The translations under genes and the position numbers were made by a program. A stretch of 63,431 nt of DNA, from contig RSEE01000031.1 of assembly GCA_003971905.1 (NCBI GenBank), forward strand, positions 620,001-683,431. The letters are read 5' to 3'. Below the pieces are notes generated by a model. The model searched no databases, was not told the DNA's origin, and worked only from the letters and a program-made list of their open reading frames with translations. The DNA comes from Moniliella sp. 'wahieum' (Eukaryota). The number at the start of each line of letters is the position of its first letter. Within the stretch, counting starts at the first letter, position 1. Shown one piece after another: positions 10,952 to 61,884 of this stretch.

Positions 10952-11759
10952 CCACGGTTGTCACCAATCCACCCCGTCTCGTGGAAGACCCTCTCTCCAC
11001 CAGCCAATGAGCATACATACATTTGATCCTTTCCCTCTTGGGCCAACCCCCCTAACAATTGTGCATTGATTCTTTGCTCCCACCCCCCCATCCCCCCATC
11101 CCCCCACGTACCCATCGTCCCATCCTCCCGTTTACCCTACCTCTTTTTGTACATCGCATCCCGCATTGCATGACCACCCACTTCAGTTGCTCTGTCTCTC
11201 GCGCCCATTTCATCTGCTTCGGGGACCATTTTGGTTGGGGGGTGGGCTTGTGGTCACCGCGTCTCCAAAAGCCTTGGAGGTCTATCATCATGTTGACGAT
11301 GAGAGCTCATCCCGCTCCGCCTGTCTCTGGAGATCTCTCCCATCGATCAATGGCATTACGCATCTCGTTCCACCACAATACTATACTTAGACTGTTGACG
11401 ATATGCATCGGTCCTCTCTTTTACGACCCTAAAGATGGTTGGATGGCCAACACTTGCATCATGCATCATTGGCGAAAGTATTGACAGGAGAGAATAGCCG
11501 ACCACCATTCAGCCTAAAACGACGTCATGCATCATGTGTCATGCTGCCTCTCATGTGTCTGTCATACACGCAAAACACACCTTCCCAAGCCGATAAATTA
11601 TTGCATCAAACAGGTTTTACCGGCCCTGAGTACTCCCAGGCTCAGCGCTCAGGCTGAGCGCTCAATAAGCTCTCAAGATCGCAAAAGAACATCATTGATC
11701 GGGATATGGCAAATCCATATCACGAACGCTGGTCGGCAACAGCCTCAGCCGCAACTCCG

Positions 11760-12542
11760 CGACGGTTCTTATTGGTGTGGCGGGTAGAGCGACCGGCGGG
11801 AAGGCGAGGTTGAGAGGGCAAATGGGTAGGCTCCGCCCGGCGAATGGGCATGCTCCCACGGCGATGAAGCTCAGCAGATCCGCCACAGCAATTTCGTCCG
11901 CTTCAGCATCGTAGACGTATTGGTTGATCTTTGAATCGATCTTGTCCTTGATCGATGATCCGAGCTGCTTGAGCTCCTGTGCAATACTGTCGCTGGGGAT
12001 TCTGCTCCGCGGCTCCGTTTAGCACCAGCCAAGGGGGTTACCTCAGGATCGGCGTCGTGGGGGAAGAGCACTGAGAGAGTCAGGAAGCGGTTGGTCCAAT
12101 GCGGCATTGAGCGATGGCCCTGAAGGAGTGGGAGGCTTTGGGGGGACAAGTGAATGGGAAGAACGGATCCGTCAGTAAAAGAGGGGCCTTGCGTTCGATT
12201 AGGGATTCAAACATGGCGTACCTGAACCTGAGGCTGCGCCTGTGCGGCCATGGCTAGAAAGAAGATGATACCAATTAGACCCAAGAGGATTCTGGAAGAC
12301 AACCGTATAGGAGAATGGCCAGAGGAATGGTAAGAGTCCACGCTTGCACAAGCAATCTTTAGCTTCGCCAGAAGCAGCGAGCACTGATGAATGACCTCAC
12401 GAGAGAGAGCGCGCGTGACGTACTTATTGGTTTGGTTCTTCTTGCTTCCGCGCGTACGACGCGAGGGAGAGGACGCAAGACGCGGTGCGACGGAAACGGG
12501 CTCGGATGCCCCAGGAGCAGTTGCGTTGAAGGGCGAAGACAT
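11760..12542 (-). CDS. Hypothetical small spliced protein
   Basis: ATG at 12542 (MSSPFNATAPGASEP...), minus-strand TATAAA at ~12633-12638, canonical intron GTACGC...TACTGAC...TTCAG at ~12120-12220. No family recognised; 3' end uncertain. Confidence 0.35.
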
Positions 12543-15500
12543 GGCTAAAAGAAAGTGAGGACGTGAGAAGGGCGGTGGTGTCGATGATGGAGAAGCCAGA
12601 GTGTCCCATACCCCTGGGCGGATCGGATCGCCTTTATAGAAAAAGAAGGTAAGGATAATGGCGCGTATACAGCCACGCCAACCTGCACGACGCGGGGGGT
12701 AGTGGCTAGTGGCCGGTGATCATCTGATCCGCGAGGAGGGAGCGAATGAGGCCTGGTGGTTACTGAGTAGTACTGACTCAGATCTCTGGCCGTCGGAGTG
12801 GCGGGGAGACACGCGGACGCGCCGCCACAGCTTCTGCGCGCGCAGGTGTGCATAAAAGCCTCACGAACGAGCTCTGCCGCAGTGCCCAGGCGGAAATCCC
12901 TGCCGCCCCGTGCTGTGCGCATACCCCGGATAAATGTCATCTGTGCGCTCCAGTGCTGCTGTCTGTGCGCAAGCCTGTGGCGGGCGTCAGCGCGTCAGCG
13001 CGCCAGAGCGTCGGCTCGTTAGCGCGTTGGCGCTCATCTGAGCGAATAAGCTCTAACGAAGCGCTACCCTGCGCTGCCCCTGCTGAACGCTGGCCGCAGG
13101 GGGGCACTGTTCACCGCTTCTGCATCATGCATCGTATACATACGTCATGCATCATGCCGAATGCCGAATGCCCGTGGGAGACCAGAAAACGGGTCTGCAT
13201 ATCTGGATGGGTTCTGATCGATCCCTGGACATGCACATGCTCATGCCATGATCCATGGATCGGCTTCTGAAAGCATGGCCTAGCTCATCAAATACTGTCT
13301 TCCTGCATCTGTAACAGAGCGAGAGGGTCGCTCCACTTGGGCGCCAGCATATGAGCGCCTTCAAGCTAGTTTCAAGCTTCAAGCTTCGTAGCTACAGTAG
13401 TACAGCGAGTCAAAAGTGTAAAGAGTATAGTAAAGCTATAATAGTAAAGCTGGTTATAACCAGTTTAAGCGCCATCAGTGCATCAGTGCATCAGCGTCAG
13501 CGGTAGGAGACATCAGATACGCAGGCGTCAGCGCGTCAGATGTCTCAACGTCTCAACGTGCAACCACAAGTACATGCATACCGGTAGCCCCTAAGGCCTA
13601 AGACCTAACATGTCACAGGCCCATCAAACACTCAATATTCCCTCTCCGATCCAATTCTCCCACTGCGCGGCGGTTGGACCCTCGCCTTCGTCCAGCACGA
13701 TTGGTGTATGTATGCCAATTATGTGCATCACGCGCCACCACGTCACTCGAGAATATGACAGGGGCATGTAAAACTGGCGTCCGAACAACTTCAAGTTCTT
13801 CAGCAGGTTCTCTTCTCTCGTCAAAAGAATGTGGCTGTTGCAGAGCGGCCCGTTGTCAATAACGTCTACGGTACCAGGCCATATCTTATCGTACCGGGGA
13901 AGAATTACATGCGATCACATTTCATTACGTCCCGCACGCGCCTCCCTCCTGCGAGGTGCCACAACAGATGCTCACACAGCGCTCACGCACCAAAGGTACA
14001 CTACCTGAGGCCCTGAGGCCTGAGGCTCAGGCCCCAGGCTCCATGGAGTGTGACATGATGTGAATGTGAACATGCGGCATGCGACAATATGAGGCCTGCG
14101 AGGGGGCTGTATATAGGTTGGCACGGGGCAATGTATTCCATGTTACATCCTGCTCTCGAAGCCAAAAAGTCATGTGAGGCGAAGAAGACACGCGCATCGC
14201 AACAAGAATTATAGCAGCTTGGAATGGGCAGAGAATAGCCACTGCAAGACTGTGAATCTGGGGGCCAGTACCATGCTCCATCACTTCCCTGATTGTAACC
14301 TCTCGGTGGCTCCATTTCTTTCTCTCGATCGCCACTAAGTACTAAGCCCATTATCACCATCTCTCCCACAATCAACTGCATATGATTGTGGTTGATTAAT
14401 GATTAGCGCGCGCTTAGCCCTTCCTCTTCCCCCCCTTCCCCCTACCTATGGTATGTGCGTGTACAAAACGCCTCTCCTGCCGTGTCTTGTGGTATGACGG
14501 GGGGTGTACTGTGTCCCAATTTTGGTCACTTTCCAGTTAATAGTAGTAGTAGATAGGAGCACCTTCCCTCTACTCGATATTGAACAGATACCACACCCCC
14601 ACCCTACTATTGGAAAAATGTATGTTCTAGAAGTGGTAATCATTCGTGGAGATGGAGCAAGAGCAGAGAACTTGGTGCGAAGTGAAGAACCAGGGAAAGA
14701 GTGAAACGCTGGGGACAAAAAATTGGAAATGGGAGCGAGATCACCAAACTATGATACTCAACGTTCAACGCCCTCCATCAGCGCAGCAACTTGAGAATAG
14801 TGACGTCTTGCTGTTGCTGTTCTTGTTGCTGTTCTTCAGACTTTTTCCCTCCTGAATATACCATGATAACCAGCGATATGTCAGTGTATATAGTCCCTAG
14901 TTACAAAAAGGCAATAGTGATATGCCTGTCTGCATGAGAGGAGACGCACATCATCGTGTGTACAAAAAAGGTGCCAACTGGAAAGGTTAAACGAACAGGA
15001 GATGAAGATGAGGAATGGGATGAGGCTCATATTATTTTAGTGGAGAGAAGGCGAGGTAAATGTATACCTCAGAAAAGGTGGACTGAGTCACACGGAGAAA
15101 AGAAAGGGTCAGAGCATAGGCAAGAGGGGGGAAACAGGGGTTAGCACAGATCACACGATCCAGGCAACCTGACAACTGTGTGTGACCAGGTGTATCTGAT
15201 TTCTAAGGAGATGTGATGGATGCGAACTCTGTTGAGAACCTTCGGTTTTTTTGGGACTTGTGGTCATGGTCATATGGCAAAGAGCGTGCCCGCCGCCCCC
15301 TCCTGGCCAGCTGTATCAGCTTAGTAGGATCAGTGTCGTGATGGAAATTTTCGGTAATAATACCCCATCCGTGACGAGATGTAACAGGAGATATGGAGAT
15401 GGGGGAAAGGATGAGGATCATATTCATCGAGTGGAAAGAGGGCGAGGTATCTATGTGCCTCAGAGAAGAACATGCGAGTTGAGTCACACGGAGGAAGAAG

Positions 15501-16642
15501 GGGAGTATAGTCAAAGGGAAAAACAGTGGGGTCTAATAGAACAAATCAGGGACCAGTCAACTTTGGGATCAAACGGGGTGACCAAAAGTTGGTTTGATCC
15601 CGCTACTCCCACCGATCCTCTGTGGACGCCTTTGGGTCATCTTCTTCGACAAAAATCGCCGTGGAGAAGACTTGTCGCCTCCCACCGAACCAAAGGTTGC
15701 CAGATCAGGGTGAGAGCTTGAGCAGCGCGCGGGCTCGTGTCAGCACGACCCTTCTTCCCGTGGAATGGTGAGGTTCATCTCCCTTTTTCCTGTGCGGCAG
15801 GGGGGCGATGGGGAGTGACCGAGGAGACCCCTGGCCATGGCGCATCTCGGCGTCCACACCCTAATAGGATGTCACGAGACCTGAGGAAACATGGGAATGT
15901 AGTGAGAACCGGGTCGTTCTTCACGTTTTCATCAAAGGCGGAGCCTGCCGTCCATCACCATCCTTGGTACCACTATTCGACTATCCTCTGCTCCGTTTGC
16001 ACCACCACTCTCCTTTGAGCCAGTCGCGGAAAAGGCGCCAGAGAACGCTATCAGATAACTGAGCTCTTGAACGTTCAACTGAACGTTGAACATATGAGAT
16101 CGGATATCCGGAGATCGGAACGCCGGTCGGGACGTCTTGCACCGAGTGCCGGCACGGCGGTACAGAACAGATTGAGTGGGGCAAACGTCGACGTTAATCT
16201 CCCCATCAATACCACTGTTTGTACGCATCCCACACCCCCACATTGTGTGGCTAAAGCAGGGGCCCGTCTGCTTTTTAATTGGTGTGGGGCGGTTGGGATG
16301 TACCGATGCGCTGTGGTATTCTAACTGAGTGTTGTCTGTTGAGAGTCGGACGGGGTGAGAGGATGCGAGCAAAAGGGCAAGCGCACACGCTGTCGTTGTT
16401 AGATGGGGCCATTGGTTAACCCGGTGATGCAGCCTTCTCCGGCTTTCGAGCCGCACTCTCTGCCGAGGAGATAGAAGAGAGATGTTCTGATTTAAAAGCA
16501 CACTATTCGAAAGTACCACTTGGGCTTACCGCCAACTCCTGTGTCAGTGCTTATTTAGTCTCACCAACCCCACCACCACCCACACACCAGCACCCGAGCT
16601 GTTGTGAATTTGGTGATCTCCACGTCCTCTAGACAACTGGAG

Positions 16643-18561
16643 ATGCGTCGTCAGTTCGTTTCCACTTTCAGGACATTTACCACTACGAGTGCTTCCCTCC
16701 GGGCGACTACAAAAATGGATCGCGTGAGCAGTGCCGACATGTTCAAGGGAGCCGACACGGCCGCGATGGACCGCAAGGGTCCGCTGTTCGCCGGACAAGC
16801 AAACTTGCCCCACCTCCCGGTCCCAAGTTGGAGGAAACTCTACCCAAGTACCTCAAGTCGACCAATCCCTTCCATAAGACACGGGAAGAGAAGGAGACGA
16901 CCGAGGCCGCGGTACAGGCTGCGCTTGAAGGCTCCGAGGCCCAGCTCTTTCAAAAGTTGCAAGCTCGCCTCGAGGCCCGGGCAAAAACCAAGACGAGTTG
17001 GTTGGCGGTGTGGAATGATATGGCGTACTTTGGCTATCGTGATGCCTTGATGCCCAATGTCAACTACTTTTACTGCCATCACAATGACCGCACCCGAAAG
17101 AGCAACCTTCTTCGTGCCCCGGTCTTGGTAAAGGCCTTCCTTGCTTTCCGCCGCCTCGTGGAAACGGGCCAGCTGGACCCTGACATGGGGAAGCATGGCC
17201 CGCTGGACATGAGCTCCTTTGTCTGGCTCTTCAATTCCTGTCGCATCCCCCGGGCCGAGTGGACTATGCTGTCAAGTTTGATCCGGCCACCAACAATCAC
17301 CTCGTCGTGCTCCGCAATGGGCACTGCTGGTCCTTCGATCTCCTTCATCCCACCTCGGGAGAGGAACTGTCGGAGCTGGAAATTCGATCGCAGCTTCAAC
17401 GTATCCTCCAAGACCCGGAGAGCAGCAAGCCCGCGACCTATTCCCTAGGTGCTCTCACTGGAGGCAACCGAGACGGGCCAAAGCCCGGGAGCTGATCGTG
17501 GCCCATTCTCCTCTTAATCGCAAGGCGCTGGAGAAAATTGAATCATCTGTCTTCATCTTGGCTTTGGACAACGACTCGCCTGTCACCCCAACCAGAGGGC
17601 GTGGGCAACGTGGACAGGTGGCAAGGGGGGATTAAACCGATTCTTTGACAAGCAGCAACTTGTTGTGTTTGAAAATGGTGTGTCGGGCTACAATGGTGAA
17701 CACAGCACCATGGATGGCACACCCACCCTACGCCTTAATGACTTTTCCCTCGCCGTTGTGGCGGAAGGCAAGATCAGTATGGGGACGAGCGACAGTGGGG
17801 CTTCCCTCCCTCCACCCGAGCGACTTGATTTTGACCTCCCTCCACTCAGTAAGGAGGCAATCAAGACGGCGCAGGCTGAGTTTGACTCCACCATGGGCCA
17901 GTGTGAAGTGGTGGTACAGAACTTTATCGGGTACGGCAAGGACACAATCAAGAACTTTGGTGTCTCCCCGGATGGCTGGGTGCAGATGGTGATTCAACTG
18001 GCCTATCACAAGTTGCATGGCGGGCCTACGGCGGGTGTATGAGAGTGCGCAGACACGCAAGTTCCTCCATGGAAGGACTGAAGTTGTTCGTTCATGTTCG
18101 GATGAAAGTACTGCGTTCTGCCGTGCCTTCCTGGACCACACTGTGCCTGACCAGGAGATCCACCAGCTCTTTCAAGCGGCAGTCACTCAGCACATTCGTT
18201 ACGCAAAGGCTGCCGCCGACGGCAAAGGAGTAGATCGCCACCTGCTTGGTCTCAAGAAGATGGTAGGGTCAGATGAGCCCTTGCCTGCCCTCTTCACTGA
18301 TCCTGCGTTTGAGCAAAGCTCGCACTGGCGCTTGTCCACTTCCCAGATCTCGTCAGAGTATCTTGCTTTCCTTGGCTTTGGACCGGTCGTAGCCGATGGA
18401 TATGGGGTAGCGTATTGCATCAAGAAGAACCACATTGAATGGTGCGTTTCCTCTCGCGAATCCGATACAGCCAAATTGGCGTACTACCTCCAAGAGTCGG
18501 CGTTGGAACTGCAGGCCATGTTCATCCGTTTGCTAAAGAATAAGGACCAGGCCCAGTGTGA
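16643..18561 (+). CDS. CAT2: Carnitine O-acetyltransferase (choline/carnitine acyltransferase family), frameshifted
   Basis: Motifs 'LPHLPVP', 'FNSCRIP', 'NRFFDK', catalytic 'GYNGEHSTMDG', 'SPDGWVQMVIQLAY', 'YESAQTRKFLHGRTE', 'GVDRHLLGL', 'LSTSQ', 'GFGPVVADGYG'. Arg/Ser/Thr-rich N-terminal presequence. Confidence 0.93.
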
Positions 18562-20910: not shown

Positions 20911-21042
20911 GCTGTGAGTGCCCACGACAGATGTGGGGGGTGCGAACGCTAGGGTGTACGCGGGTGGAAGAGGTGCCAGGCGGGCGCAATAACTGGGTGG
21001 GGGTTTTGGGTGCCAGGTCGTGGCACATGTGGAGGCAGAGGG

Positions 21043-21049: not shown

Positions 21050-24000
21050 ACAAGCGGAGCGCAAAGGAGAAATGGCGCGCGGTAATCGATAATCGATGAT
21101 CGCTGATGAACGCTCAGCGCTCAGCCTCACGGCCACAAGTGGAGCCTTGGCTTCATCGCTCAGAGCGTTGTGCATCCCGGTGGAGAAAGACGCCCAGGGG
21201 CAGAGGAGCAGTGTGCCAACTACCCCGACTCAGGCCCAATCTTGAAGCTTGACTTGAAGCTTTCTTATCTGCTCTTATCGAGTCTCGGACAGCTTGGGGC
21301 TGGGGGCCTGGGGGGCTTGGCGCTTGGAACGCAAGTATGGCAACACTGTCTGCTACTGCCCCCCTGCGGCACCAAAACATCATCAACATTGGACCTCGAT
21401 GATCGATCGATGAACATGAATCGCGACCCCCTAGGAACCTAGGTACCACAAGTTGCCAATAGTGCGTTGGTGCCGAGCCCAGGACTGAGTACTGAGGGGA
21501 CTGGTACGGAGGTACTGAGGCACTGGGGCATCAGACCGGGGGCCTGCTGGGACCGAACAAGCAGCACTGGTGCTCTACTTGCGGATTATTCAGCTTTCCG
21601 CATCAGATGCACCAGGAGGCAGTCATTACTCCATTCAAGGGTGAGCCGGTGAGAGCTAGCCCACCGGTCACATGCAACGTGCGCACGCAAGCGCACAGAA
21701 TCATGCATGATGATCGATGAGCATGATGCATGGTGCGGAGAGCTTTCCGGGGACGGGGCTGGTGTTCCTGTTCCTGTCCCTCCCATACAGAGCGAGCGAC
21801 TCCATAGATGCACATTATCATAGTCACGCGTCACGCCTCCGTCCCAGCACGTCTCTCAGCCGGCCCTCCATCGGGCTGCCCCGGGCCTCAGAATCAAGCT
21901 TCAAGCTTTCAAGCCCAAGCGCGCGCTCAAGCGCTCAAATATCTAGTGCTTGTGACCTAGTGACCGTCACGCGTCACGCGTCACGCGTCACACGTCACAC
22001 GCCATCAGCAGTCCTATATCCTAGTCCCTACTCCCTACGCTGCGCGCTACTGCCGAATTGGATCGAACTCAGTTACTCAGTTACTCAGTAACTAGTAACT
22101 CAGGACTTTTGTACTCCCGTTCTCCTCCTTCAGGCCTCAGGCACAGACTCCACAGTGGGTGCCACATGTGTCATCTCCGTTGTATAATCGCAAGCGATAA
22201 TCGATAACAGGTTTAATAACTCCGCGCTTGCCTCTCTGTATCGAAGAGTACACTCGAGTACCACGCACGCATCGTGCAATCCATGGTTAATCCGGTTAAT
22301 GATAATCGATTATCGATTCCCAGTTACCCATCGAATATCATCGATCGTCCCGTCCCCTGTCGGGTACCCCATATACACGACGATGCCCCACGTCGTCCCC
22401 GACGAATCGATCGTTTCAGATAAATTCTCGATAATCGATCTTTTGCCCAACCCGATCATCGATCATCGATCATCGACGATCAAAAGCCCAGGGCTAAGAT
22501 TTTTGTTCCTTCAGCGGTTCAGCCGCAGGGCTCTATATGTATGGGCGACGACGGGCAACAAAAATTAATGACCAGAATAGGAATGGGAATGGAGATGATC
22601 GAGATGAACGTACGGGATGGTCGATAAATTAAAGCTTCGATAAGTAGATTAAAAGTGAAATGAAATGAAAATATCTCAGTTGTCTGTGACGCATATGACG
22701 GAGTTAGGTAGTTATTCATTACTGCATGCATATCTCGTTTACGAAGCTATTCAGACCCAAGGGACAACGAAAAAGCGCGCCTACCATACAGGCTCGTTCA
22801 TCGTCCGGCGCGTGCTACTAGCCAACCCAAGCAGGAAAACCCATTGGTGCCTTTATCGCCAACAAGTCAGGACCATCTGGCTCCCACCATTCGCTTCCAA
22901 ACCGAATGCAGCGCAATGAGTGGAGGGGAATGAGCGCGGTAGTAATAGAGACACTACACATATGTGAGCGTTTCGATGAGCCATCTCCAAATATGTCATG
23001 CTGTTCAGAAAGTCCAGCTTTCAGCACACAAAAACCTGGTCGGCCGTCTTTTGGCCTAATGCCCCGTGCGTGTCCTCACAACTGTGAAGTGAAGAGCGGA
23101 TTCTGAATCGTCCCTGATGGTACCTGTCGTTTCTTCCTTCGCATTCTGCGTATTTAGCTCCAAAAGAAAAAACAGTCGATAATGCAGACCTGTACCTTCT
23201 TTGTACCCGAACTCTCCCTCAGAGTGTGGCCCATCTGTTCCATACGCTTGTGGCCTTCTTCCCTTTCCATTTCCCCCTTCTTCCTCCGAAGTGGCCGCCT
23301 CTCTTTGGAGAAGTGGTGGATGCCATCCCGAAAATGGAGAGCGAAAAGGCCTAAAAGCCTTTTATAGTCTTTTAGTCTTAGTCTTAGATTTATCGTTTAA
23401 GCATTAGAATCGAAGTCATGAGCTGACGCCGGACTGGACCTCGACCCGCCTGAGAACAGGGGTACTTTCCCTTGCAGGAGGACGGACCACTCACGGTTAA
23501 TTGAAGCTGAATAGTTTTTTGGTAGACTGGAACGGCGCTAGAGACGAGGTGAGACATCCTATTCGAGCACGGCTGGCAAGTTCTCGCATGTGCCGGAAGG
23601 AGCAATCCTATTATAACCTCTTCCGCTTCCTGCTACTTCGGCTTTGCCCAACAGAGCCAGAAAATCGATAAGACTTCCTATCTGTGGCGACACCTCTTAC
23701 ATCTCTTTTTGGCATTAACGTTATTTACAGAAAGTTGAAGGGCATTCCTGGCATCAGCATTATCCATCCCTCCGTACTATATACATGAGGCGTTGCTATG
23801 CGCAGATGTAATTTCGGAAGTCGAGAATATCTTCGCCAACAATCTAATAGACTGCATAGCACACTCTCTGTGACTGAAAGTCACATTGGTACAGAACAAT
23901 TGACAGAACTGCACTGTGTGGTGGAAGACTCACTAAAATAAGGAAGGGAGAAGGATGAATGGGATTGCATGGGAAACGGTTACCCAACCATGATACGGCT

Positions 24001-25622: not shown

Positions 25623-26585
25623 GGCGAAGGGTGGGAGGTAGATGTTGATGTTGAACGGATCCGTACGGTATGGTGCGTGGTTATATACACAACCAGGAGG
25701 GTAGCTAGCAGAGAAATGTGGGCCGAAGAAGCTAGAAAGGTGGTCGATCTGATTGAGGCATGGACAGGAACGCATGAGCGCAGTTAATCCAGCGAGGGTG
25801 AGACTGGTCTAGTGCGGCGCCCCACGCTAGTTGTGTGCCCGGAGTGCACGGTCCCTTGACTGATGGCGCCAGACCACGGTTGGTAGGGATCAAACTTTAT
25901 TAACTCTCGGCATTGCAACAGGGACAACTCGCCCTGGGCGGAGCATGTTCGAACAGGTGACTTCGCCGAGTTCCGTGCCGGCAAATCAAACTTGGTGCGC
26001 GGCCACCACAACCACCTGCCAACTCTGCGTCCCGCATGCCTCATCGTTCTTCCGCTCGTCCGCAGTACTACTAATGCACTCCATGATCATTCTTCCATCG
26101 ACATCCAACTGCCGGCGGGAGGATGTTGGAGAGGCACATATGATCAGCTTCAATTGATGGATCCACATGCACGCGTGCCATCTGTATATCATCTGTTTAC
26201 TGTCATCGATAATCAACGTTCAAAGCCAAACAATACATTTGGGTAACCAGTAACATCAGACCAGCTGTGAACTGCTGTGGAAGGGAAACACCGGTACATC
26301 GGGGACATTTTGGGAATGGTGCACAAGGTCGATAAGTTCGATATCATCCAAAAGGCTTTAAAGCTTTTGATACTTGAAGCCCCTGCCGAGATTGGAACAT
26401 GCTATATCACGACGGCTACCAGTCGAAAGTCTAAAGGCCATGTGGGTAGAAATGCAAAAGTAAGACTCGAGGACGGTGTGCGAGCTCGCACACTTTTTTA
26501 CCACATCTTCCACATGCATATACCATCTGTTAGATAGAAAGCAGAAGGAACAAGGAGAGGAGAGAGGGGAGGGGGTGCGGCGAAA

Positions 26586-29059: not shown

Positions 29060-31755
29060 GACTACGACTGCGCGGGGGTGGTGGTGAAGGGGAAGAAGGC
29101 GCGGAAGGAGGCCCCAGCTTTATGAGGTTCGAGAAGGAAAGCCCAGAAAGACGAAGTGTGCCTGGGCGGTGCGGTGCTGTGCTGTGCTGCCCTGCCAGGT
29201 GCAACTATCCACCCAGCGGCGGATGCGGGGAAACGGGCGCCATGCCACAGTGCTCACCCATCATCCCGCACCCGCCCACTGTAGCACACGGGCGCCACGC
29301 TGCAGAGCCCATAAATTCTGGCTCGCATTGGGCTTCTCCTGCATGCATCATGCATCATGGTGCACCAGCCATTTCACGCAGACAGCCCCCGAGCTGGGGC
29401 GCCCGCAACCCTACCGAACGCTTACAAATGATTGAACAGCGGCGGCTACAGCTGCGGCCTACTGCCCGCTTCCCCATTGGCGGAAAGCGCACCCGCATGC
29501 AGGAACTCATGGCAGCACATGGCCGGTGTCCTGTTCGATCCCCTGACGTCATGTGTGTAAACACGCCTGTGTTGCAGACCAACTTCGGTCACCTGGTCAT
29601 CCCAGTCATCGCACTTGACGCGAACGTGCCTACTAAACGAAGACCTTGGCATGGGGCATGTTTGCTGAAGGGAGTTTAGGGTTACATCACACATCACATG
29701 TGATTGCCAGTCTGAGCATGGCGCTTCTTGTGCGGCGTACGCGGGTGGGGTCGCGAAGAATACAACAAGATGGATCTGTCGAAGAGCGCATTCTGCCTTG
29801 CGCTTTCTGGTGGGTGGCGGGCAATTAGACAAGGCGCACCACTCAATCCTATATTACGATCCCAATTTGGACCCTGAAGAGCGGTGGCTCAGGTACGCAC
29901 GCCACACTGATGGTGTGGGCATATGCAGAGAAGAGATATAATCTCTCTTCGGGATTATAATCAACACAGAGATCTATACTGTTTTGCTCTGTCAAGCGTC
30001 AAAAGCTTCATCCATCTTCTGGTGTATTGTTTCCACATCCCTCCCATCTCTCTTTCCTTGATCGCTTTGCACAATACGAAAATCGGAGACCAGGCAAACC
30101 AGGCAGACGCCAAAAATTCGGGTCGGGAAGTTCTTGAGGAGTGTCAGGGCACCGCCAGAGGGCCGGGGGGGGTTAGGGCCACAATCCCTTTTTGAGGTCA
30201 TAAGGCAGACTCACGGTTTTTACGCGCTTGGGCTGGTTGGTGAGTACGAGCGGGGCTAAGGCAAGGAGAGGCCTCTCGGTGTGTAGCAGATGCGGCTGCA
30301 AGCCTTGTGGCGAGGCTACGTAGCACAGGTTTGGGGGACAGTGGCGTATCTGAAGCCTTCGGGCTCAGAGAATGGGAGTAGTATAACGGAGAACAAACCT
30401 GCTAGGCTTCAGCTGAACTGGGACTGAAGGCGGCGTGGCTATTAGAAGCGGGATCACATGCGGTTAAACTGAGCTGGGTGTCGACGTCGCAAGGGAATGT
30501 ATGCGCGAACGGGATTAACTGAGGGACGGAGAGCTGAAGACGGGAGCTGGAGTGATCGGTCACACACACATGTCCACCGGCTGTGTGTATGACCCCGTTC
30601 CAGATCTTCTTTGACCCCTTTGTGTCTCTCCCTCATCACGATTCGTTTACCCTGTGATTGCATCGCCTTCTCTGGTATATAAGACACCATTCCATCCAGC
30701 CTAATGAATACCATCGGCATCCAAAACAATCCCCTTCCTACATGATGGATGAGGTTGAGCAGCTGAGGGGCTACTAAGAGAAGGAGTTGCCTGTGTTGGT
30801 TGATCAATTGGTGAGGAAAGTAGGGAGAGACGCCGATGGACCGTGGGGGGAAATCACGAACCATTGCTAACAGACAGGGACTAAAAGGGAAATAACGCAA
30901 TCGAGGAAGAGTGAGGAACGTAGGGAGGGGGAAACAAGAGACGGTTGCCGCACGGACAACCTATAGAAAGGTAAGGTAAACGGCTCCGGGGGGGACTATC
31001 GTCGTAAAGGAAACTACTGACAATTGGGTGGCCATGCGGTAGCAACCAATTCACTCGTGGGCAAGAGGCGACTATTGTCGCTCGGATACGTGGAACAGGT
31101 AACCGTGCTGGCGGTCTTGCCAGCCGCGATAGATCTGAGTTGAATATGGGAGTGTGCTATATTGTTGGGCAGAGCGCACGGGCCTCAGTTGAGATAGGGT
31201 CAGATCGAATCTGACCCCATAACCAGTCGGGAGACGGGGTTAGGAACGCGAAGGGGGCGCATAATAGGCTCCGCCGGGCATACCAGCCCGTCTTCTCCAG
31301 TGACAGTTATAATGGATTATAGAGGTCGCACCCAGACGACATGACCCACCACCATCCTCGCCAGCACCTCTCCCGCTCGGCCACATACTTCCTTCTCCCC
31401 ATCGTCCCAAGCACGAGCCGCGCTTGACACGTGACGAGAATTCTACCGATCTATGATCGGACCCGCCATGTGGTCGCCGCGCATGTCTCTTCCAGACACC
31501 TTGTTTGCAACTACATTATTCTTTTGGCTCTTTTTTGGATGACACCATTCCCTCCGCTTGACATCTGACCACGAAAGACCCTCCTCGAATTGCACATATG
31601 GATGCTTCCTTTGCCTCGGACAAGCGGTGTTCAAGGTCTGTTTCTGGGTACTTGGCCATACACGGGCGGGTGTAAAAATTAATATATAATTTTGCTTAGA
31701 TGACCACATCACCCAAAAATGCGTAGAATTTGGTGCGGAACGTTTTTGACATTGC

Positions 31756-33160: not shown

Positions 33161-34229
33161 GTCTAACGCCTCAACACTAGCGGCCCCCTGCAGCAGTGTT
33201 CGAGGGTCTAATCATCTCAATCAAGAGCGGCATTTTGACTTTGCCTATTTGCGACTTGCTGCGGTACGCCTGTTGCGACGGTGACTGGCTTCACCGAACG
33301 CGGCGCATGTGCCCTCTCTAGCCCCGAGACTCCAAGGGCTCCCCGAAGATTGCTGATGCGCGCGTAAGTCAACGACTAGTAGCCTTGTCCAGTAGCCCTC
33401 GTCCTGCTTCCTACCACCAACGCCTATCTCTCGCCCGCAATCGATCGCCTACGCTACTGTCCCAAACGCTTCAGCATCCAATGCGGTCTCCATAGCCGGG
33501 TGAATCGCTATACAGGTCACGATTATCCTCACTTGAGCTTTACTAGTGACTAGTGACCTACGGTGTTACATCAAGTGTTACATCAAGCTTCAAGTGAATG
33601 GGCACCACATGACTTTTTACAAGCTGGGGCGAAGCCCCACTTTCCCTGGCCGTAGGCCCGGTGGTCGCCTCGTGACTTGTTATGTTCACGCGTTCACGCA
33701 CGATGCACCAAAGTGCTTGCGATATACGGTGAGACGAACCGCATCAGTATGGTCTGTGTGTTTCGACCAGGGGCTATCGCCCCTGGTCGAGGTCAAGGAA
33801 CTCCGACGTTGTAACCATTCCATTTAGCTTTTGTGTTGGCTTTGTCCATGATCTCCGCAGCCCTAAGGTATATAGCCTCTGTTGCTCTTTCATGCTCCCT
33901 TGTATTTGGCGTGTCGTTGGCTGGCGTATTCGACCATCACACTACCAACACTATAGTGCTACCGCATCACCTATCAGGGTGGCCATCTGGACTGCGCCAC
34001 TCTCATCTTCAGATAGGGGATCACGAATGTAATACGCCTTGGAAGAGCATCAAAGAAGCGGGAGAGCGTGCGTCTCTGGGAGGGGGGCAAGTTTTTAAGG
34101 TTGAGGGGACAAGGTTTAAGGTTAGAGGGGGCCGCGATCGTCTGCCGGACCTGTGACAAAAAGCACCCACTAATGCATATCATATGTACAACTCATCTCG
34201 CCCATCCTTTTACCAAGTCGCCACCGCCA

Positions 34230-35433: not shown

Positions 35434-37048
35434 GGGAAGGAAGAGCCCACTACGACTCTGATGGCATCGATATTCCACGAGTAGTGCTGGCCCCATCCAA
35501 TAACAGGATTGCAACGAACGGTGCCATGCACCTGTGGGACGAGCGCGCGCCAAGAAGAAAACACCTGCCGTGGTCGCTGTCGGAGGAGGGGCAACAGCGA
35601 CGACTCTTCGGACAGTGATAATGATTGATGCGAGTATCAAATGGACATGCATTGCGCGATGAGGATGAGTATAGGTTTGGTGGCAGTCGTCAGTCATCAG
35701 TAGCCAGGCCATAGGGTGGTGCGCATCCCGGACACATCAGCCGGAACCTCTCGAGACGTGAGATGGGGCCATGGGCGGCGCTTTGACATGATGCGCATGC
35801 GCACATAAGCTTCTTTTGCCGGCGAACGAGCCAGGTGACGGATGACTGTCATGCGTCCCACCCGCAGGGGCATGGCCGAAGCGAAGGGGCGGTTATGGAG
35901 TAAGAGGCCAGACGGTGAGGCGTGGGTTGCAAGCCCCAAATGACTGTCGCCACAAGCGTCGGGTCTCTGCCACCAGCCTCTTCAGCCCCACTCCGCTTAT
36001 CCAGCCGATCTACCCATTTTCCAATCCCGCCATTACCCATATTTCAATTTTTCACACCCGCCCGTGTAGGTGATGGACCGAAGCACTCTTTGTGCGCAAC
36101 ATTCTTTTGAGCTGGGTATCTGCTCCAGCACTTACCCCATCCATCTCTTTTTTGTGGGCAGCATTGCAGGCACAATGCGCTATCAGAGAAACTCGGAAGC
36201 CGGGGTAACATCCGCGAAATCGACATGCAGTATCACAGATGCGAGAACCCATCCATTATCGCGGCGCATATGTGTGGTTCCCCAAGTCCCTGCGGTCGTT
36301 CATCTCCCTGATTGTCTCACCAAACCTCTGTTGGTATCCCCAAACTCCTTTCTACTTCTCAGCAATTCGTTTGCTCCTCTTTCTTCTCGACTGATGATTC
36401 TTTCTTAACACATTTGGGCCTACGGATTTCTTGTGGTCCTTTGGCCCGGAGCAGGTTGTTCGTGTTGTGTTTTTCGGAAAACGCCCCTTCAGTTCCCCCT
36501 CAAGCCTACGAGTTTCGTTGTTTTCTCTCGCTTCTGTTGTTTTCCTTGTTCCGTGGCCTGACCCGTGGCGGCGACGGGCTGCTTCGTGGTTCATGTTGCT
36601 CTGCAGGCTTTGCTGGTTTTGGCTTACACCATCACCACCACTGGTGCGATTGCATACCCTCGAAGATCTTCAGGACTCCTGATCTCATCACGCGAAGATA
36701 GCGCAAAACTTTTTGGACCGCAAGTCGATGAACTAATACTGATGAGTGAATGTCACTGTGTGCATGGTTTAGTAGGAGCTGGGCAGTGGAGCTAACAGAA
36801 TGTGTGTGAGCGACACCGTTGGTTACCCAACTTTTACCAGTACCTTGCCTTGATTGGTAACGGCATCGGGGCTCAGCTGTGCTGTTGTAAGCGCCTCGTT
36901 AATGTGTAAGGGAGGGGTGAAGTGTATAAGCGCTAAGCACAGAAGGTCGCAGGACGCTCATCATGCATCATGCATCATCGACCACTAGACCACTAGTAAT
37001 TAGTCACGGGTCGTTGGTACCCGGTCCCCGGTCAGGTCAGTCACCTAG

Positions 37049-37159
37049 TCACCGGTCATCGGTCATCGGTCATCGGCATCGGTCATCGATCATCAGTCAC
37101 TAGTCATTAGTCATTAGTCATGCATCATACATCATGCATCATGCATCATGCATCATGCG
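37049..37159. repeat. 16-unit (TCA-N4)n heptad array
   Basis: tca ccgg|tca tcgg|tca tcgg|tca tcgg|ca tcgg|tca tcga|tca tcag|tca ctag|tca ttag|tca ttag|tca tgca|tca taca|tca tgca|tca tgca|tca tgca|tca tgcg. Confidence 0.92.
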
Positions 37160-37932
37160 CCGTGTACCATGCATATATGACTGTGGGACATGTGGGACGG
37201 CAAGTGAGGGCCTGAGCGTGCGAGCAGCGACTGCAGTGTTAATGACCGATGACCGAGTGACCCTAGTGAAATAGTGGTATTGGCACTGGGGAAGCGCCAA
37301 GAGGCAAGGGACTGCATACTGCACCCTATGCATTACTACAGGGTACTGGGGGTTGCTGCACTCTAGTGCTTGGTCCTTTTTGGGTTGCACCCTGTCTTTG
37401 AAAATGTCCGATGAGTACGTGGGTTGTTCGAACATGTAAGTGGACAGCTTGGCTGTTTGAATTGCATCTGCGTTGCATTGATGAATTGTGGATTGGAGAG
37501 GATTGGATTGCATTGCGTTCAAGTGCCTTGCGTTGCAACGCACGGTATATCCGTTGCAGTAAGTACTAAGTTGCCTTCCTTAACATTTAATTCTACCAAC
37601 ATGGCTGCGTCGGGAAGGCGATTTTCTGGCTGGCTGCCTTGCGCTGCTCCAGTGCAAGCTCAGCTTGCAACTCGGGTTGTCTTCCCCAGCCATGCCTTGA
37701 CTAACCCGTACACCTCGCCACCATCCCCTCTTGCCGCCTTCCAGCCTCTGCCAAGCGTCTGCACAGCAGCAACATTGCTATCCAGTCCTCAATTCGGCTC
37801 AACACGGCATCACACTGTGTCTCTGTGATAATCGATCACGGCCGGCAAAACCATACGGCGGTGGTACAGATTTTCTTGCCAGAGGGTCGGCGATCTGTGC
37901 CCAGTAGCTAGCTACCTCTGGCGGAATCTGCC

Positions 37933-39500: not shown

Positions 39501-41281
39501 GAAGTCACTTTCATCTTTGGCCTCCAAGGCAAGAGTCGGATCAGGTTGATCGGAAGGAATGACGATCCTCCCCCAAAACACAAAAGTGCCTTTTCTCTGT
39601 CTTTACCCCGTGCTCACGCAGCCGTATTTGAGCCCATCCTTCCTGTGCACAGCGGTTTCCACACACTGTTTTTATTATGTATCCTCTCTATTCAAGGACT
39701 GAGGGCGAGGCCAAAAGTTTCGTCGCTTGTGAAGGGGGGGACCATGATAGAAGATGTATCAGCTAGGATTACGCCTGGCGTATGTCAACATGGGATTGGT
39801 TAGAGATGAGGAGGACAATGTTCTTTGGTAGATCTTCATGAACCATCATATTTGAAGAATGCCCCGTCTCATTGGGTGTTTAACGTTAAACCAAGGAGAG
39901 CCCACAGAGAAGACTCCGATTGAGAACCCACTCCCTCTCCATCCCATACATTCCCACAAGGCATTAAAACCTCTGCCCATCCGCCCCGCCTGCCCTTTCA
40001 CCAAAAACCCTTCGGCATCTAGTAATGTGTGTCCTTTGGAAACCTACAACCCCACTCATTGCCCATATCCAGGAGGCGTTCCGAGATACTCGTCCGCGAG
40101 GACAGAGGCATAATAAATCAACGTGCTTGAACCCTAGAGAGTCTCTCATCATATGGGGACTGGCAAGTGGCAATACATGGGATAAGGGGCATCGTCTCAC
40201 CACGTAGTCGGTTTATGTCCAGCAGAACCGGGACTAGAGGTGATGGCAGGTTGGACTGAGATACCTAACCCGATCCGAAGGACACGATCCGAGCACGATC
40301 TGCGCCTCCGACGATAACTGAGTGTATTTTTTGGCAGAGTTTTCAAGTAGCTTGCCATTAGAAGAGCTGGAAGCGTCCTTGCCGTGTGGGGAAATCAGGT
40401 CGGTGCGCTTGGCCCAATAGCACCAGGCGTTCTGTTGGTACAGACAATGTCCACATGCAAACGCACGAAATACAAGTGTTACACTAATGCAGTTGAGGAT
40501 ACGTTTGCAGGACTATACCTCACGCGTTTTGCCCCATTTGGAAAAGCGTCTACTGTTGTGATAGCCTCGGCTTGATTCTCTTCTCATTCCTTCTTCCCTT
40601 CCCTCGTTCTCCCTTTCCGCTAGCCTCTACTGTCACACTCACTGCCACAGCGATGTAACCCTTGCTACCATCTAACCGAATTCAACCGTCTCTCGCTCTC
40701 TTGATGACGGATTGTTCCGCTTTTCGTCTTTTGGCATCGCGATTCGTCGGTCACTTCGCTTTGTAGGTCCGTCGGTGCGATGAAGCCATAGGCCTTCACT
40801 CAGTGTGGCTCCCCACTGATTTCTCATATATCTTTTGTCCTTTTAGCCTTGCGCCCATCGTCCATCCTCACCTGCTGCCGTTTCCTCTCTGGTATTCTCG
40901 CAGCCTGCCATAGTAGCAACCAACGTACAAATAGAGCCAATCCATCATCATTGATCATCATCGACCCATGTGTTATCCATCCTTTGCTCCCGCAAGACCT
41001 CACCAGGCGCGATCTGCATGGATGGAAACGACACGCGCCACGCGGGGGAGGCCCGTGGCGATATGAATGAGACAGCGCACGGGCGTGCTTGAGTACTTGA
41101 CACTGAACTGCTGCTGTCAAACGGCCAGGCGTGATGCATGATGCATGATGGGCCCGCACATGTAGCTAGCAGGCCCTGCCGGCTGGCCGCCGCTTCCAGT
41201 GACGTCAACAAGTTTTTATCCATTACATTGCCATCCATCCTATAGCATTCTCTGTGGCAAATCAATGTAGGGCTCGTGTGG

Positions 41282-48234: not shown

Positions 48235-49205
48235 GGCTCACGCAGACACACAGCGGGCCGGTAGGCAAGACTCAGCGCACGCACCAACGCCGGAGCGATG
48301 GACAGAGTCGAGGGCTCGATAGAGGGGTCGACAGATGGTGGCCGCAAAGCTCTGCGGTGGCGAGATTCAGCTGCAAGCTTCAGCGTGATTGGACGTGGAG
48401 CTTGAAGCTTGAAGCTTCAACTTGAGGTGTCAAGCTAGACTTCAAGCTAGCTTCAAGTTACGCTTCACTTGAAGCTTGAAGCTTTGCAAAGCTGGCCCAA
48501 CTCCTCAGCTCTCTCTCCAAACGCAGAGCAAAGCCCCAGCGGCTAAACCAGCCAAGCGAATCTCGACTCCACTCTCACTCCACTCTTGCTCTCAACTGCG
48601 CTGGGTCTTTCTGCCCTGTCTTTGTTCTTGCCCCGTCCCCGTCCCCATCCCTTTCTCTCGTCTTCGTCTTCGTCCCAATCCCAGCCGCTATCAGCTATCA
48701 GCGCTGGCGCCTCAGTCCTGCCCTCTTGACTCAGTCCGGCCTAATCGCGACTCCAGCGGTATGACCCACCCGCACCTGCATGGCCCAGCCGTGGCATGCC
48801 CTGGCCAGCAACTCACTACTCACACTGCCACCATGCGGGCAATTGTGAAGAAGAAAGTGTGTGATTTAGATTTTGTTCTTCGCAGCACGTATTTATGACA
48901 CCCTATGGCCTGCCCACACGCACCACACCTCAAGCTTCAAGTGAGACGAACAGCAACCGATCCAGCTTCATGAGTAAGAGCAAAGTAGTGATTACATCGT
49001 ACACGGTCGAGCATGCATGAGGGGAGGTTGTGGGTAGCAGAGCAAGAGGTGGATGGGAGTAAAGGGGGGCGGGGCGAGGCAAGGCCAAAGGAGATGCCAG
49101 CCAACGGCACGCGCCCCATTTTGGCATTGGTATTTCAAAGGCGCTCTCCCAGTGTGGGCCGCGATACAGTTGGGGAGGCGATTGGTTCAGGCCTGGGCGA
49201 GCGTC

Positions 49206-53090: not shown

Positions 53091-54613
53091 GGCGGTGGTG
53101 GCGGTGTGGACAGCAGCGGGGTGCGTGGGGACGGGTGGATGGCGGCGGGGAGGCAGCCTGGTACCGGAGCCTCTCCATCACCAGTCGCCCGTCGCTGCTT
53201 TGTGGTCGTGGGAAGAAAGGACCAGTGTGGACAAATCACACGTCACGCATCACGCGGCCCACAAGCCACGCGGGGGGCTACGCAGGGCTGAAATTCCCCG
53301 TCCCACCTGCTGGCCCATCGACAGTGAGTGGGCCACGCACTGACTCTCGCCAACCCCCTGTCCACGCCATCCACATCCCCCCTCCATGCCATCTTCGCCG
53401 TCGCTGAACGTTAATAAACGTTGAATGTGGATCTGGACCAGGGATCAATATCAATACCCCCCAAGAATGAGAACAAGACGGATGATCGTGGCCACCGCCA
53501 CGCCACCCTTCCACCACATCCAACCTCCTGTCTCTTTTGTGATGCGGTTGATATCTACTACTCCGCTCCCTTTGTTGTCTTGTGTGCGCGATCGATCGAC
53601 AAATCATATAGTCTCTGCTATAGTCACTTGGACCGCCCTACCCGGCGGGTCCTTAGGCTGTTGTAACACCTCTTAACCTTAGTGCTCGTTGATAACGTCA
53701 ACACGTTCAACGTTCAACGAAGCAAAGGGGGTTTCAGTCTATTTGCACTTTTTCCAAGCTCTATTGGAAAAATACGAGATTGAGGGAATGGCCTTGAAGC
53801 TTGAGCAACACTGGTTGCTGCGGGAGGTAGTGCTATATAGGGTTCACCGCAGGCCCTTAGATTGTTTGGAGCAGGATGAAGGATCGATGAAGCTCCTGGT
53901 GAAGCTCGCTTTTAGTCAGACGACTTCCGCTCGCATAGGCTGAGCATCCCCTGTGCTCGCCCCATCCCTCTTTTCTGTCTCCTGTCTCCTTCCCTTTAGA
54001 CGTTCAAGCTTCAATAGAGCTTAAAGCTTGACGGAAGGTTGCGGCTCACAGCGTTGCCTTCACGCCTTGTCCGAAGGCTGCGTTGCGGCTGATCCATACG
54101 ATCGCGAGTGCTCCCAAGTCCCACTCGATAGATCGTGTGGCTCACCAGCGATACCTTCACGTTGTCTGAACTTGAGGCGGCTTTGCAACGCTGATGCCGC
54201 AGAGTCCCCAGTGGTGCTCCGAGTCGCACTAGTGACTTGAGAGATTCGTGACTTGGCAAGTGACTGACAAGTGACGGTGACTGGTGACATGGACATCCCT
54301 GCTTCCAAGCAGTGAACAATACGAGGAACGCAGCTGCGGTGGCGACTGCTTCTGCATTATTTCACAGCCTCGCTTCTGGGCTGGTGCTGAGCTCAGCCTG
54401 CACGCTCTGGCCTTCCCTTACGTCACCGGCAGCATGCACAGCCTGTGCGGCAACACGCAAGCGCTAAGTGCGGGGGCTTGGCTTGGCAAATAATACTCTG
54501 ACCTGACAGCCTCTAAGGCCTGACTGGGTTGGGGCCGGAGAGGCCTGTAAGGCCTATGGCTCAGCCCTGACCGCCGACCTGCTCGTCGCCACCACCGCAT
54601 CCCTCACAACCGC

Positions 54614-60570: not shown

Positions 60571-60599
60571 TTGCTCCCGCCCACTCCGCCTGCCCGCCC

Positions 60600-60683
60600 T
60601 TACCCTTCACATTACCCTTCGCTTTACCCTTCGCTTTACCCTTCGCTTTACCCTCGCTTTAACCCTCCGCTTTACCCTTCCGC
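60600..60683. repeat. 12-bp tandem repeat (TTTACCCTTCGC)n, about 7 copies
   Basis: tacccttcac attacccttcgc tttacccttcgc tttacccttcgc tttaccctcgc tttaaccctccgc tttacccttccgc. Confidence 0.88.
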
Positions 60684-60696
60684 CTCCCGCGCTTGA

Positions 60697-60825
60697 TTTC
60701 CTTCTTCTTCTTCTTCTCTTTTCTTCTTCTTCTTCTCTTCTTCTTCTCTTCTTCTTCTTCTTCTTTTTCTTCTTCTTCTCTTCTTCTTCTTTCTTCTTTC
60801 TTCTTCTTTCCCGCTCTTCTTCTTT
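60697..60825. repeat. (TTC)n / polypyrimidine microsatellite
   Basis: About 125 nt that are almost purely C/T, dominated by TTC. Confidence 0.92.
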
Positions 60826-61884
60826 GGCTTGTGCTTCCCCACTGTCTCGGGCCCTGCCTCGGCCAGACCCCACATTCGTTTTCCGTATACCCGCTTTTTC
60901 CCATCTTGGACTCTCCCGACCCCACGCCTTGTGCGGGTGCAGCCGCGCCCCGCTCCGCGCCGCGGCCTGCGCCTGCCAAGCCTGGCACCCCACTCGTTTT
61001 TGACCGCACCCCTTCGTTGCCTGGGAGGCTGGCTGGGAAGCGTCAAGCTGCGCCCATCCCACTGCTCTTGCTGTCGGCTGTCGGCTGTCGGTTGTCGGTT
61101 GTCGCTGTTTGGCTGTCTGCCCTTCCTTCCTCCTTCCGCCTTGTCCTCACCCTAGTGGCTGGTCCCTTTTTTATTCTCGCTTCTTGTGCGGCGTCGTCTT
61201 CGTCTTCGTCTTTGTCCTTGTGATTCCATCTCGTTCGTGTGGCGTGTGGCGTGTGGCGTGTGGCGGTGGTGGGGCACGGAGGGTTGCCTGATGGATCAGC
61301 TGGGAAGGGAGAGAGTGGTGTGTGTCCATAGTCTCTCTCTCGTGAGGCTGCTCGTGCAATTTAATGCGCCCCGCTGAGGCGGGGTGCGCGCGCGAGACGA
61401 AATGCGCCGGAGAAAGACGAAATGCGGGGCAGTAGCGGGGTTGAACGTACGTTGAACATTGACCGTTGATGCATGATGGGTGAAGCGATGGATGATGGAT
61501 GACGGATACGATGACGTTCATATGTGACACGTGACACGTGGCACGTGACAGTCACTCTCATCGATCGACGTCATCACTCATCGATCAACGAGCATCCCAG
61601 ACGCGGCTGCTGCGGTGCCGCGCTGGCCTTGCAGCGTGAAGGCGTAGGCGCTTACGGACGACGCAGGGCCCAAGGCGCAAGCACAAGGCGGGTATTTTTG
61701 GGGCGGGCGGGAGGGCCAGGCAAGGACAGTGCGCGCAGAAGCGCCGCCTCCCCACACCTCCCCGACCAGGCCTCTCCCACCAGCCCACGCCAGCCGCACC
61801 GCACGCGCCGCCCACGCATCGCCCTTTATACCGCTCTCCACCAGCCCCCCGGGCGCCCACCCACCCCCACCCCCACCTGCGCCC

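Follow-up and report, generated by a model that had tools for sequence, protein, structure and literature searches.

T-N-A palindromic heptamer elements in gene-free DNA of a 63-kb window of Moniliella sp. 'wahieum'

The window described here is a stretch of 63,431 nt from Moniliella sp. 'wahieum' (GenBank assembly GCA_003971905.1, contig RSEE01000031.1, positions 620,001 to 683,431 of the forward strand), with an overall G+C content of 57.5%. Its gene-free DNA contains short direct repeats with a period of 7 bases, in which a T-N-A triplet alternates with a self-complementary 4-mer. Elements of this kind (a T-N-A, a palindromic 4-mer and the same T-N-A again) number 53 and are spread over 46 loci; none lies in an open reading frame (ORF) supported by a Pfam match. 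They may be the scars of a lineage-specific templated mutational process rather than a protein-recognition code, a reading to which we give roughly an even chance. All counts refer to this one window.

Periodicity of the repeats

An earlier, sequence-only reading of the stretch had noticed runs of TCA or TGA every 7 bases between genes, and this periodicity was borne out by direct counts. TCA is followed by TCA at a lag of 7 bases 63 times, compared with 10-31 times at each other lag between 3 and 21, and TGA by TGA 37 times, compared with 9-28 times at other lags. Exact self-matches of 7-mers peak at lag 7 with 188, compared with 102, 64 and 14 at lags 6, 8 and 10, respectively. The excess also held when the window was shuffled 200 times in blocks of 1 kb with dinucleotide content preserved: TCA-N4-TCA was found 63 times vs 19.1 (standard deviation 4.4), with a palindromic spacer in 31 cases vs 1.05 (shuffle maximum 6). 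The corresponding values are 37 vs 15.8 for TGA-N4-TGA (palindromic spacer 14 vs 0.82) and 16 vs 3.0 for TAA-N4-TAA (8 vs 0.15). The inverted arrangements are not enriched, with 15 vs 16.5 for TGA-N4-TCA (palindromic spacer 3 vs 1.0) and 17 vs 17.0 for TCA-N4-TGA (2 vs 1.1). The full TGA-N4-TCA 10-mers that had been pointed out are thus present, but only at chance frequency. All 11 examples quoted in the sequence-only reading were found where it had placed them; their spacers are palindromic except in the last, TGA CACG, where the unit is the palindrome CACGTG plus A.

Exact arrays of at least two units (counted by their primitive unit) number 39 at period 7, where about 4.5 would be expected by chance from base composition, 13 at period 8, and 0, 1 and 2 at periods 9, 10 and 11, respectively. 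As a negative control, 1.05 Mb of unrelated metagenome loci was used (80 loci from an enolase metagenome scan, 47-66% identity, mostly bacterial-looking). It contained 0.79 elements per 10 kb, with the middle bases of the two triplets same or different in a ratio of 83:209, compared with 8.4 elements per 10 kb and 53:16 in the window. The T-N-A palindromic pattern is not generic to DNA.

The unit: T-N-A plus a self-complementary 4-mer

The true unit is wider than TCA or TGA and consists of T-N-A plus a self-complementary 4-mer. In a scan of all 64 triplets, palindromic spacers were nearly confined to the T-N-A class, with 53 of 123 pairs at spacer length 4, compared with 2.2 of 41 pairs in shuffled DNA; the other triplet classes have about 5% palindromic spacers, except for phase-shifted readings of the same arrays. 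An unbiased scan for a triplet, a palindromic 4-mer, the same triplet and the first half of the 4-mer returned T-N-A in 63 of 104 cases. In 53 of 69 T-N-A/palindrome/T-N-A 10-mers the two triplets share their middle base, and in 16 they do not, the chance ratio being 1:3. The shared base is a C or a G in 45 elements and an A in 8, close to the background frequency of those triplets.

The T-N-A elements use 12 distinct palindromic 4-mers, in line with the claim that at least ten share one frame. Longer spacers behave differently. At five bases there are 48 T-N-A pairs vs 41 in shuffles, 20 of them of the form "4-mer palindrome plus one base" vs 4.4, and at eight bases 41 pairs vs 41, with a palindromic spacer in 4 vs 0.14; in each of these 4, a single 4-mer stands twice in tandem (GCGC, TCGA, AGCT and ACGT). 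Exact palindromes make up 34 of 40 WSSW spacers, for which composition alone predicts 25%, and 11 of 15 SSSS spacers. Judged by how often T-N-A-nn 5-mers occur, spacers with central AT should be found at 9.7 loci but are found at 1; those with central GC are found at 22 loci vs 12.7, and AGCT, TGCA and TCGA are over-used.

With the phase shifted, the unit reads as an odd palindrome of 7 bases, nnT-N-Ann. Such units are found in 20 of the 39 exact period-7 arrays (chance fraction 0.108), 19 of the 20 being centred on T-N-A; the other 19 arrays have non-palindromic units. A-NNNN-T hexamers alone are barely enriched (254 vs 216 under a Markov model), and T-N-A-centred 7-base palindromes number 247 vs 186, an excess about equal to the number of repeated elements. 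Hairpin-type palindromes of 11 bases around T-N-A with non-palindromic arms show no enrichment (12 vs 11.2), whereas those with palindromic 4-mer arms are found 23 times vs 0.9. Enrichment is therefore restricted to direct repeat and palindrome combined, and is seen neither for hairpins nor for hexamers singly. Across the window, a palindromic 4-mer stands twice in tandem (TGCATGCA, GATCGATC, TCGATCGA and others) in 27 places vs 12.4 in shuffles.

Location relative to genes

The coding mask consists of the Pfam-supported ORFs, which cover 12,584 bases; masks based on codon usage and 3-base periodicity were too weak. These ORFs contain 0 of 53 elements, where 10.5 would be expected under uniform placement, and 1 of the 39 exact period-7 arrays. 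The scarcity in coding DNA that had been judged by eye in the sequence-only reading is thus upheld, and confinement to gene-free DNA is observed directly. At least one element is present in 10 of 13 gene-free intervals. The element-free intervals are 18653-19924, 43101-44399 and 45576-46441, two of which are convergent gaps.

Elements prefer promoter-containing gaps, yet they are not limited to such gaps. The interval 10851-11694 carries three elements and one array between two gene ends, flanked by an ORF on the plus strand that weakly matches a receiver domain (E 0.0013) and by the stop codon of a minus-strand ORF. Judged from the ORF reading and the codon score, it is probably convergent and promoter-free. 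Some elements lie about 30-55 bases beyond a stop codon. No convincing strand or transcription polarity of C vs G middle bases was found, nor any orientation bias relative to genes; after gene orientation, the flank extension was to the right at 15 loci and to the left at 7.

Flanks, array lengths and decay

The elements tend to be bounded by the triplet, with T-N-A/palindrome/T-N-A found 53 times vs 23 for palindrome/T-N-A/palindrome. At the 41 loci with a single 10-mer, the two outer bases were compared to the periodic continuation. A full match was found on one side only at 28 loci, on both sides at 7 and on neither at 6, i.e., on at least one side at 35 of 41. Because one half of the 4-mer matches the flank on exactly one side in 28 of 41 cases, the typical element is a 12-mer: T-N-A and two bases, the reverse complement of those two, and the same five bases again. 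Runs of matching bases at lag 7 were compared with those at control lags 5, 8, 10, 11 and 13. Runs of length 5 (75 vs 49-55) and 6 (32 vs 14-23) and those of at least 9, which are arrays, are in excess; runs of exactly 7 are not (8 vs 4-9). Plain 7-base duplication is disfavoured by this result, as it would produce a peak at run length 7.

Palindromic arrays have a mean length of 17.9 bases (n=20), compared with 17.8 bases for non-palindromic ones (n=19). Expansion of palindromic arrays driven by hairpins was rejected on this ground, and the equal lengths suggest that the palindrome is tied to the birth of an element and not to its expansion. When sites were scored against the seven constraints of an element, 53 showed no violation (shuffle mean 2.1), 115 showed one (52) and 507 showed two (507). 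Single violations hit every constraint, 11-24 times each vs 6-8 expected, the inner A and T being violated about half as often as the spacer positions. This looks like a set of fairly young elements that decay close to neutrally. A periodic signal of 35-50% identity continues for 7 more bases on each side of the elements, which indicates that many of them sit within older, eroded arrays.

In predicted single-strand folds, T-N-A forms a 3-base loop on a stem of 5 base pairs. The fold z-scores of six T-N-A arrays range from -2.1 to -3.5 in three and from -0.4 to -1.0 in the other three. The region 61070-61269 contains period-7 arrays of another kind, GCTGTCG (6.9 copies) and CGTGTGG (5 copies), with neither T-N-A nor palindrome. 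Used as controls for the folding, they do not fold (z-scores of +0.3 and +0.5). Period 7 is thus favoured even beyond the T-N-A rule.

A proposed templated mutational process

The rules that define the elements are equality and complementarity among arbitrary bases, which points to copying, since a protein reads fixed bases only. Direct repetition and palindromy arise together, a mark of templated synthesis. The absence of strand polarity and the presence of elements in a probably promoter-free convergent gap lend further support to a mutational origin. We infer an origin by copying, an order of events and neutrality. The elementary event would be the addition of 7 bases beside an existing T-N-A, namely a further copy of that T-N-A with a self-complementary 4-mer between the two copies. 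In most cases one half of the 4-mer would repeat the bases adjoining the element and the other half would be their reverse complement; in a minority of events 8 bases, with a 4-mer plus one base, would be added. Repeat events or ordinary replication slippage would then build short in-phase arrays, and later point mutations would erode all positions. Survival would be expected only where a 7-base insertion is tolerated, i.e., outside coding DNA. The agent could be a nuclease or transposase with a preference for T-N-A, or else a fault of replication or repair.

Several points speak against such a process. No repair or replication scheme known to us yields exactly the observed product, and the T and A around a free middle base demand a sequence-specific step. 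The one-sided flank signal is modest (2x2 odds ratio about 0.2, p about 0.03) and serves as a lead only. The skewed choice of spacers could reflect selection, and the distribution over intervals fits promoter function too, as 9 of the 10 element-bearing intervals are not among the three labelled convergent and two of the three convergent gaps are empty. The counts come from a single window.

Several specific schemes were worked through on paper and set aside. Staggered breaks of 3, 4, 5 or 7 bases followed by fill-in give the product only with extra assumptions, and the same is true of flap ligation, snap-back synthesis, P-nucleotide addition and small inverted triplication. The idea that the arrays supply stop codons in all three frames was also rejected: T-N-A gives stops on either strand, but the palindromes and the identical middle base remain unexplained.

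In a more specific form, which we put forward tentatively and regard as possible at best, an undescribed break-and-repair or domesticated-transposase activity of this fungal lineage would target T-N-A in open intergenic DNA, insert 7-base units and so mint palindromic hexamers as raw material for promoters. If true, the lineage would possess an inbuilt source of cis-regulatory variation that leaves a mutational signature of its own, the hexamers being, e.g., of GATA, ACGCGT, ATGCAT and CACGTG type. If the pattern is genome-wide, it would constitute a novel signature of small insertions (a direct repeat with a palindromic filler, anchored on T-N-A) and a possible route to the enzyme, and would show the build-up and turnover of non-coding DNA in a compact fungal genome. 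Palindromic sites resembling those of transcription factors could then arise in bulk via mutation rather than selection, and motif-discovery tools would misread such scars as regulatory.

Alternative explanations

The sequence-only reading had named a DNA-modification target as one candidate and an abundant dimeric factor that reads TGA-N4-TCA as another. The dimeric factor was not sustained: the inverted form is at chance, and the direct repeats keep the same middle base in 53 cases and change it in 16. Moreover, 34 of 40 WSSW spacers are perfectly palindromic, although a factor with degenerate half-sites should tolerate mixed halves. Sites of bZIP-type dimers, i.e., TGA-C/G-TCA and TGACGTCA, share the triplets TGA and TCA with the elements; they are inverted half-sites, whereas here the inverted form is at chance and the centre is T-N-A rather than A-N-T. 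More broadly, the A-NNNN-T palindromes could be sites of homodimeric transcription factors, multiplied in promoters as selected cis-regulatory arrays; we take GATAA within TAA-TCGA units, ACGCGT, ATGCAT and CACGTG to be the candidate sites. The distribution over intervals given above, the GATAATCGAT-type units upstream of the ammonium transporter gene, and the skew of the spacers to AGCT, TGCA and TCGA with avoidance of central AT would suit such arrays. Selection is nevertheless an unlikely source of 12 palindromes in one architecture (A...T hexamer, one-base gap, period 7), of exact palindromy where mixed half-sites should work, and of single hexamers that are barely enriched. Elements also occur in a probably convergent gap and shortly past stop codons, show no orientation relative to genes, decay over all positions and are a pattern absent from the 1.05 Mb of other DNA. 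Excision by cut-and-paste transposons would likewise leave short direct repeats around a short palindromic filler. Tc1/mariner footprints consist of a target-site duplication plus remnants of the inverted termini, and the only enzymes with a T-N-A target known to us are transposases of the IS5 or PIF/Harbinger type. If transposons of the PIF/Harbinger type ('PHIS' superfamily), whose insertion duplicates a T-N-A target of 3 bases, had visited these sites, each visit would leave the duplicated T-N-A plus two bases per inverted terminus, and repeat visits would give arrays. The arithmetic agrees (3 + 4 = 7), the identical middle base (53 vs 16) matches target-site duplication, the palindromic filler is the expected product of two inverted termini, and footprints too would survive only in non-coding DNA. 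Fungi are reported to harbour PHIS groups that target T-N-A (NuwaII, C|TNA|G; PMC4482050). We still judge this origin improbable. No transposase family was matched among 235 ORFs of at least 110 residues in the window, no element with terminal inverted repeats was seen among the 25 longest of 83 inverted-repeat pairs, and the window holds no dispersed family beyond the arrays themselves. To supply twelve fillers, about twelve families, each with termini of its own, would be needed; at 35 of 41 loci the filler agrees with the host flank, as bases derived from termini would not; and the G...C filler predicted by the NuwaII target is present at only 9 of 46 loci.

Ordinary micro- or minisatellite slippage with a lineage-specific 7-base preference, in which palindromic hairpins escape flap or mismatch processing, would account for the general period-7 excess, for the 19 of 39 arrays that are non-palindromic and for the 13 period-8 arrays. 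The predicted folds, with T-N-A in 3-base loops closed by stems of 5 base pairs, and the enriched tandem pairs of palindromic 4-mers (27 vs 12.4) also agree with slippage. The palindromic arrays, however, are no longer than the others, and hairpins without direct repetition are not enriched. As the sequence-only reading had held, slippage is insufficient: the T-N-A anchor, the bounding by T-N-A and the missing excess of run length 7 stay unexplained, and we find it quite improbable. That reading had also listed the footprint of a hairpin or template-switch process, and its direction is the one favoured here, while its hairpin part is countered by the frequency of plain hairpins (12 vs 11.2) and by the lengths of palindromic arrays. 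An artefact of assembly or sequencing is extremely improbable, as the elements are varied, partly decayed and limited to gene-free DNA over 46 loci, which systematic read errors would not give.

Comparison with known systems

In form the elements are similar to microsatellites, and in their logic to transposon footprints or P-nucleotide joints, but they lack defining features of each. Like microsatellites, short tandem repeats and the proto-repeats of "indel slippage", they form head-to-tail arrays of 2-5 units in non-coding DNA, and the longest array has a variant-repeat structure. The frequency of microsatellite arrays falls with unit length, whereas 39 arrays at period 7 are followed here by 13 at period 8 and then by 0, 1 and 2. 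Microsatellites have no constraint on unit or phase, in contrast to the T-N-A plus palindrome rule and the phase-specific array edges seen here. A eukaryote-wide microsatellite survey (PMC11686069) and a survey of Tilletia indica (PMC10374028) stop at hexamers in the available parts of their text, and surveys that end there would miss the dominant repeat class of this genome. Footprints of transposon excision are alike in the direct repeat of a short target around a short palindromic filler, and T-N-A matches the PHIS target as described in part of PMC4482050. They differ in that 12 fillers are found here, that the filler copies the host flank and that no parent element lies within the window.

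P-nucleotide additions arise at hairpin-opened DNA ends, as in V(D)J joints and at hAT and Transib excision sites. The likeness is in two bases that reverse-complement the preceding two and stand between direct copies. In the elements the addition is always about 2 bases, T-N-A is at one end and not at the centre of the five copied bases, and plain 5-base duplications are not in excess (85 arrays at period 5 vs about 70 expected). No hAT- or Transib-like transposase was seen in the window. Intergenic heptamer repeats of bacteria, the cyanobacterial STRR and TAACTGA of Beggiatoaceae (PMC4679880), are also direct repeats with a 7-base unit; as described in the available part of that paper, they are prokaryotic, with one or a few fixed units per genome, long arrays and no palindromic-spacer rule. 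A search of the literature (full texts, supplements aside) returned no description of a T-N-A palindromic heptamer pattern.

Genes and individual features of the window

The genes with Pfam support include those for a carnitine acyltransferase (16633-18652, plus strand), an ammonium transporter (19925-20948, minus), enolase (24235-25548, minus), aconitase (26589-29119, minus), a velvet protein (38218-38922, plus) and a thiamine-pyrophosphate enzyme (41271-43100, plus), as well as an FGGY kinase, GrpE, a PAK-type kinase with a P21-Rho-binding domain and other kinases. The closest relatives of the enolase are those of Tilletia species (78-79% identity), followed by Sporisorium, Violaceomyces and Malassezia (about 77%); these identities mark the source as a basidiomycete, probably within Ustilaginomycotina. 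No Rfam families (at the gathering score) and no tRNAs were detected in the window. Positions 1-10850 have a G+C content of 60-65% and long overlapping plus-strand ORFs, and contain no T-N-A elements. A kinase domain is located at 8206-9303 and the weak receiver-domain match, under the Pfam cut-off, at 10521-10850; this part of the window may represent one or two very long genes, possibly Rim15-like.

The first cluster (11455..11664), in the probably convergent 3'-3' gap whose orientation is weakly supported, begins with (TGCATCA)2 at 11455 and continues with TCA-TGCA-TCA-TGTG-TCA (11523-11544), TCAGCGCTCA at 11642 and TGAGCGCTCA at 11655. A variant with period 8 is found at 12984..13033, where each GCGTCAGC unit consists of TCA, a palindromic 4-mer and one further base. 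Small arrays follow at 13121..13608: five degenerate copies of TGCATCA, ATGCCGA, 2.4 copies of TTCAAGC, the 8-mers CATCAGTG and GTCTCAAC, and TAAGGCCTAA. TGA-GGCC units with period 7 mixed with period 8 lie at 14004..14026, and TGAACGTTCA and TGAACGTTGA (16068..16091) stand upstream of the carnitine acyltransferase gene.

Just upstream of the ammonium transporter gene, the region 21083..21129 has T-A-A twice, T-G-A twice and T-C-A three times in phase, with the spacers TCGA, TCGC and GCGC, so that the anchor phase is kept while the middle base shifts from A to G to C. The densest region of the window is 21823..22476, which holds GTCACGC (2 copies), TCAAGCT (2 copies), (CGTCACG)3.9 followed by (CGTCACA)2, the 8-mers AACTCAGT, AGTAACT (2 copies), ATCGATT (2 copies) and (CGATCAT)3.4. 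The TAA-TCGA units spell GATAATCGAT five times, at 21083-21097, 22198-22207, 22303-22318, about 22430 and 37829, i.e., as GATAA motifs 7 bases apart or inverted, several of them upstream of the ammonium transporter gene; they would presumably resemble GATA-factor sites of nitrogen-regulated genes. TCATCGATAA and then TCAACGTTCA are located between the enolase and aconitase genes (26203..26222), and (CATGCAT)2.6 with (ACATCAC)2.1 upstream of the aconitase gene (29342..29698).

A 23-base unit (consensus GGCCACATGAGGTCAAGCGCTTT) is present in about 5 tandem copies at 31756-31868, with one TCA-AGCGC piece per unit, like the period-8 elements. TTA/TGA-CTAG-TGA units and TCAAGCTTCAAG are found at 33540..33594. 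The 15-mer TCAAGCTTCAAGTGA is identical at two unrelated loci, 33583 and 48930. The largest composite, 36927..37262, contains TAAGCGCTAA, (CATCATG)2.9, about 17 in-phase TCA units (37031-37160) and, in opposite orientation, (ATGACCG)2. The spacers at 37031-37160 are CCGG, TCGG, TCGA, TCAG, CTAG, TTAG, TGCA, TACA and TGCG; adjacent ones differ by 1-3 substitutions, and the longest exact chain is 11 TCA at 7-base spacing. The non-palindromic CGGTCAT (37053-37076) and its reverse complement ATGACCG (37242-37256) form two inverted arrays about 190 bases apart.

(TGATGCA)2.7 at 41132..41150 lies about 120 bases upstream of the ORF for the thiamine-pyrophosphate enzyme. Arrays based on AAGCTT occur in both orientations at 48399..48702, with (AGCTTGA)2.7, TCA-AGCTAGCT-TCA, (CTTGAAG)2.4 and (GCTATCA)2.3, and AACGTT and AAGCTT elements, including (ACGTTCA)2.4, upstream of the PAK-type kinase gene at 53405..54031. 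A 12-base repeat, TTACCCTTCGCT (6.8 copies), is followed by a long CTT-rich tract at 60600-60808, and a similar CT-rich tract is found at 47814-47870; together these form a separate repeat class without T-N-A. The last cluster, 61442..61587, consists of TGA-ACGTACGT-TGA, TGATGCATGA, (GATGGAT)2.3, (GTGACAC)2.4, which is CACGTG plus A, and TCATCGATCA.

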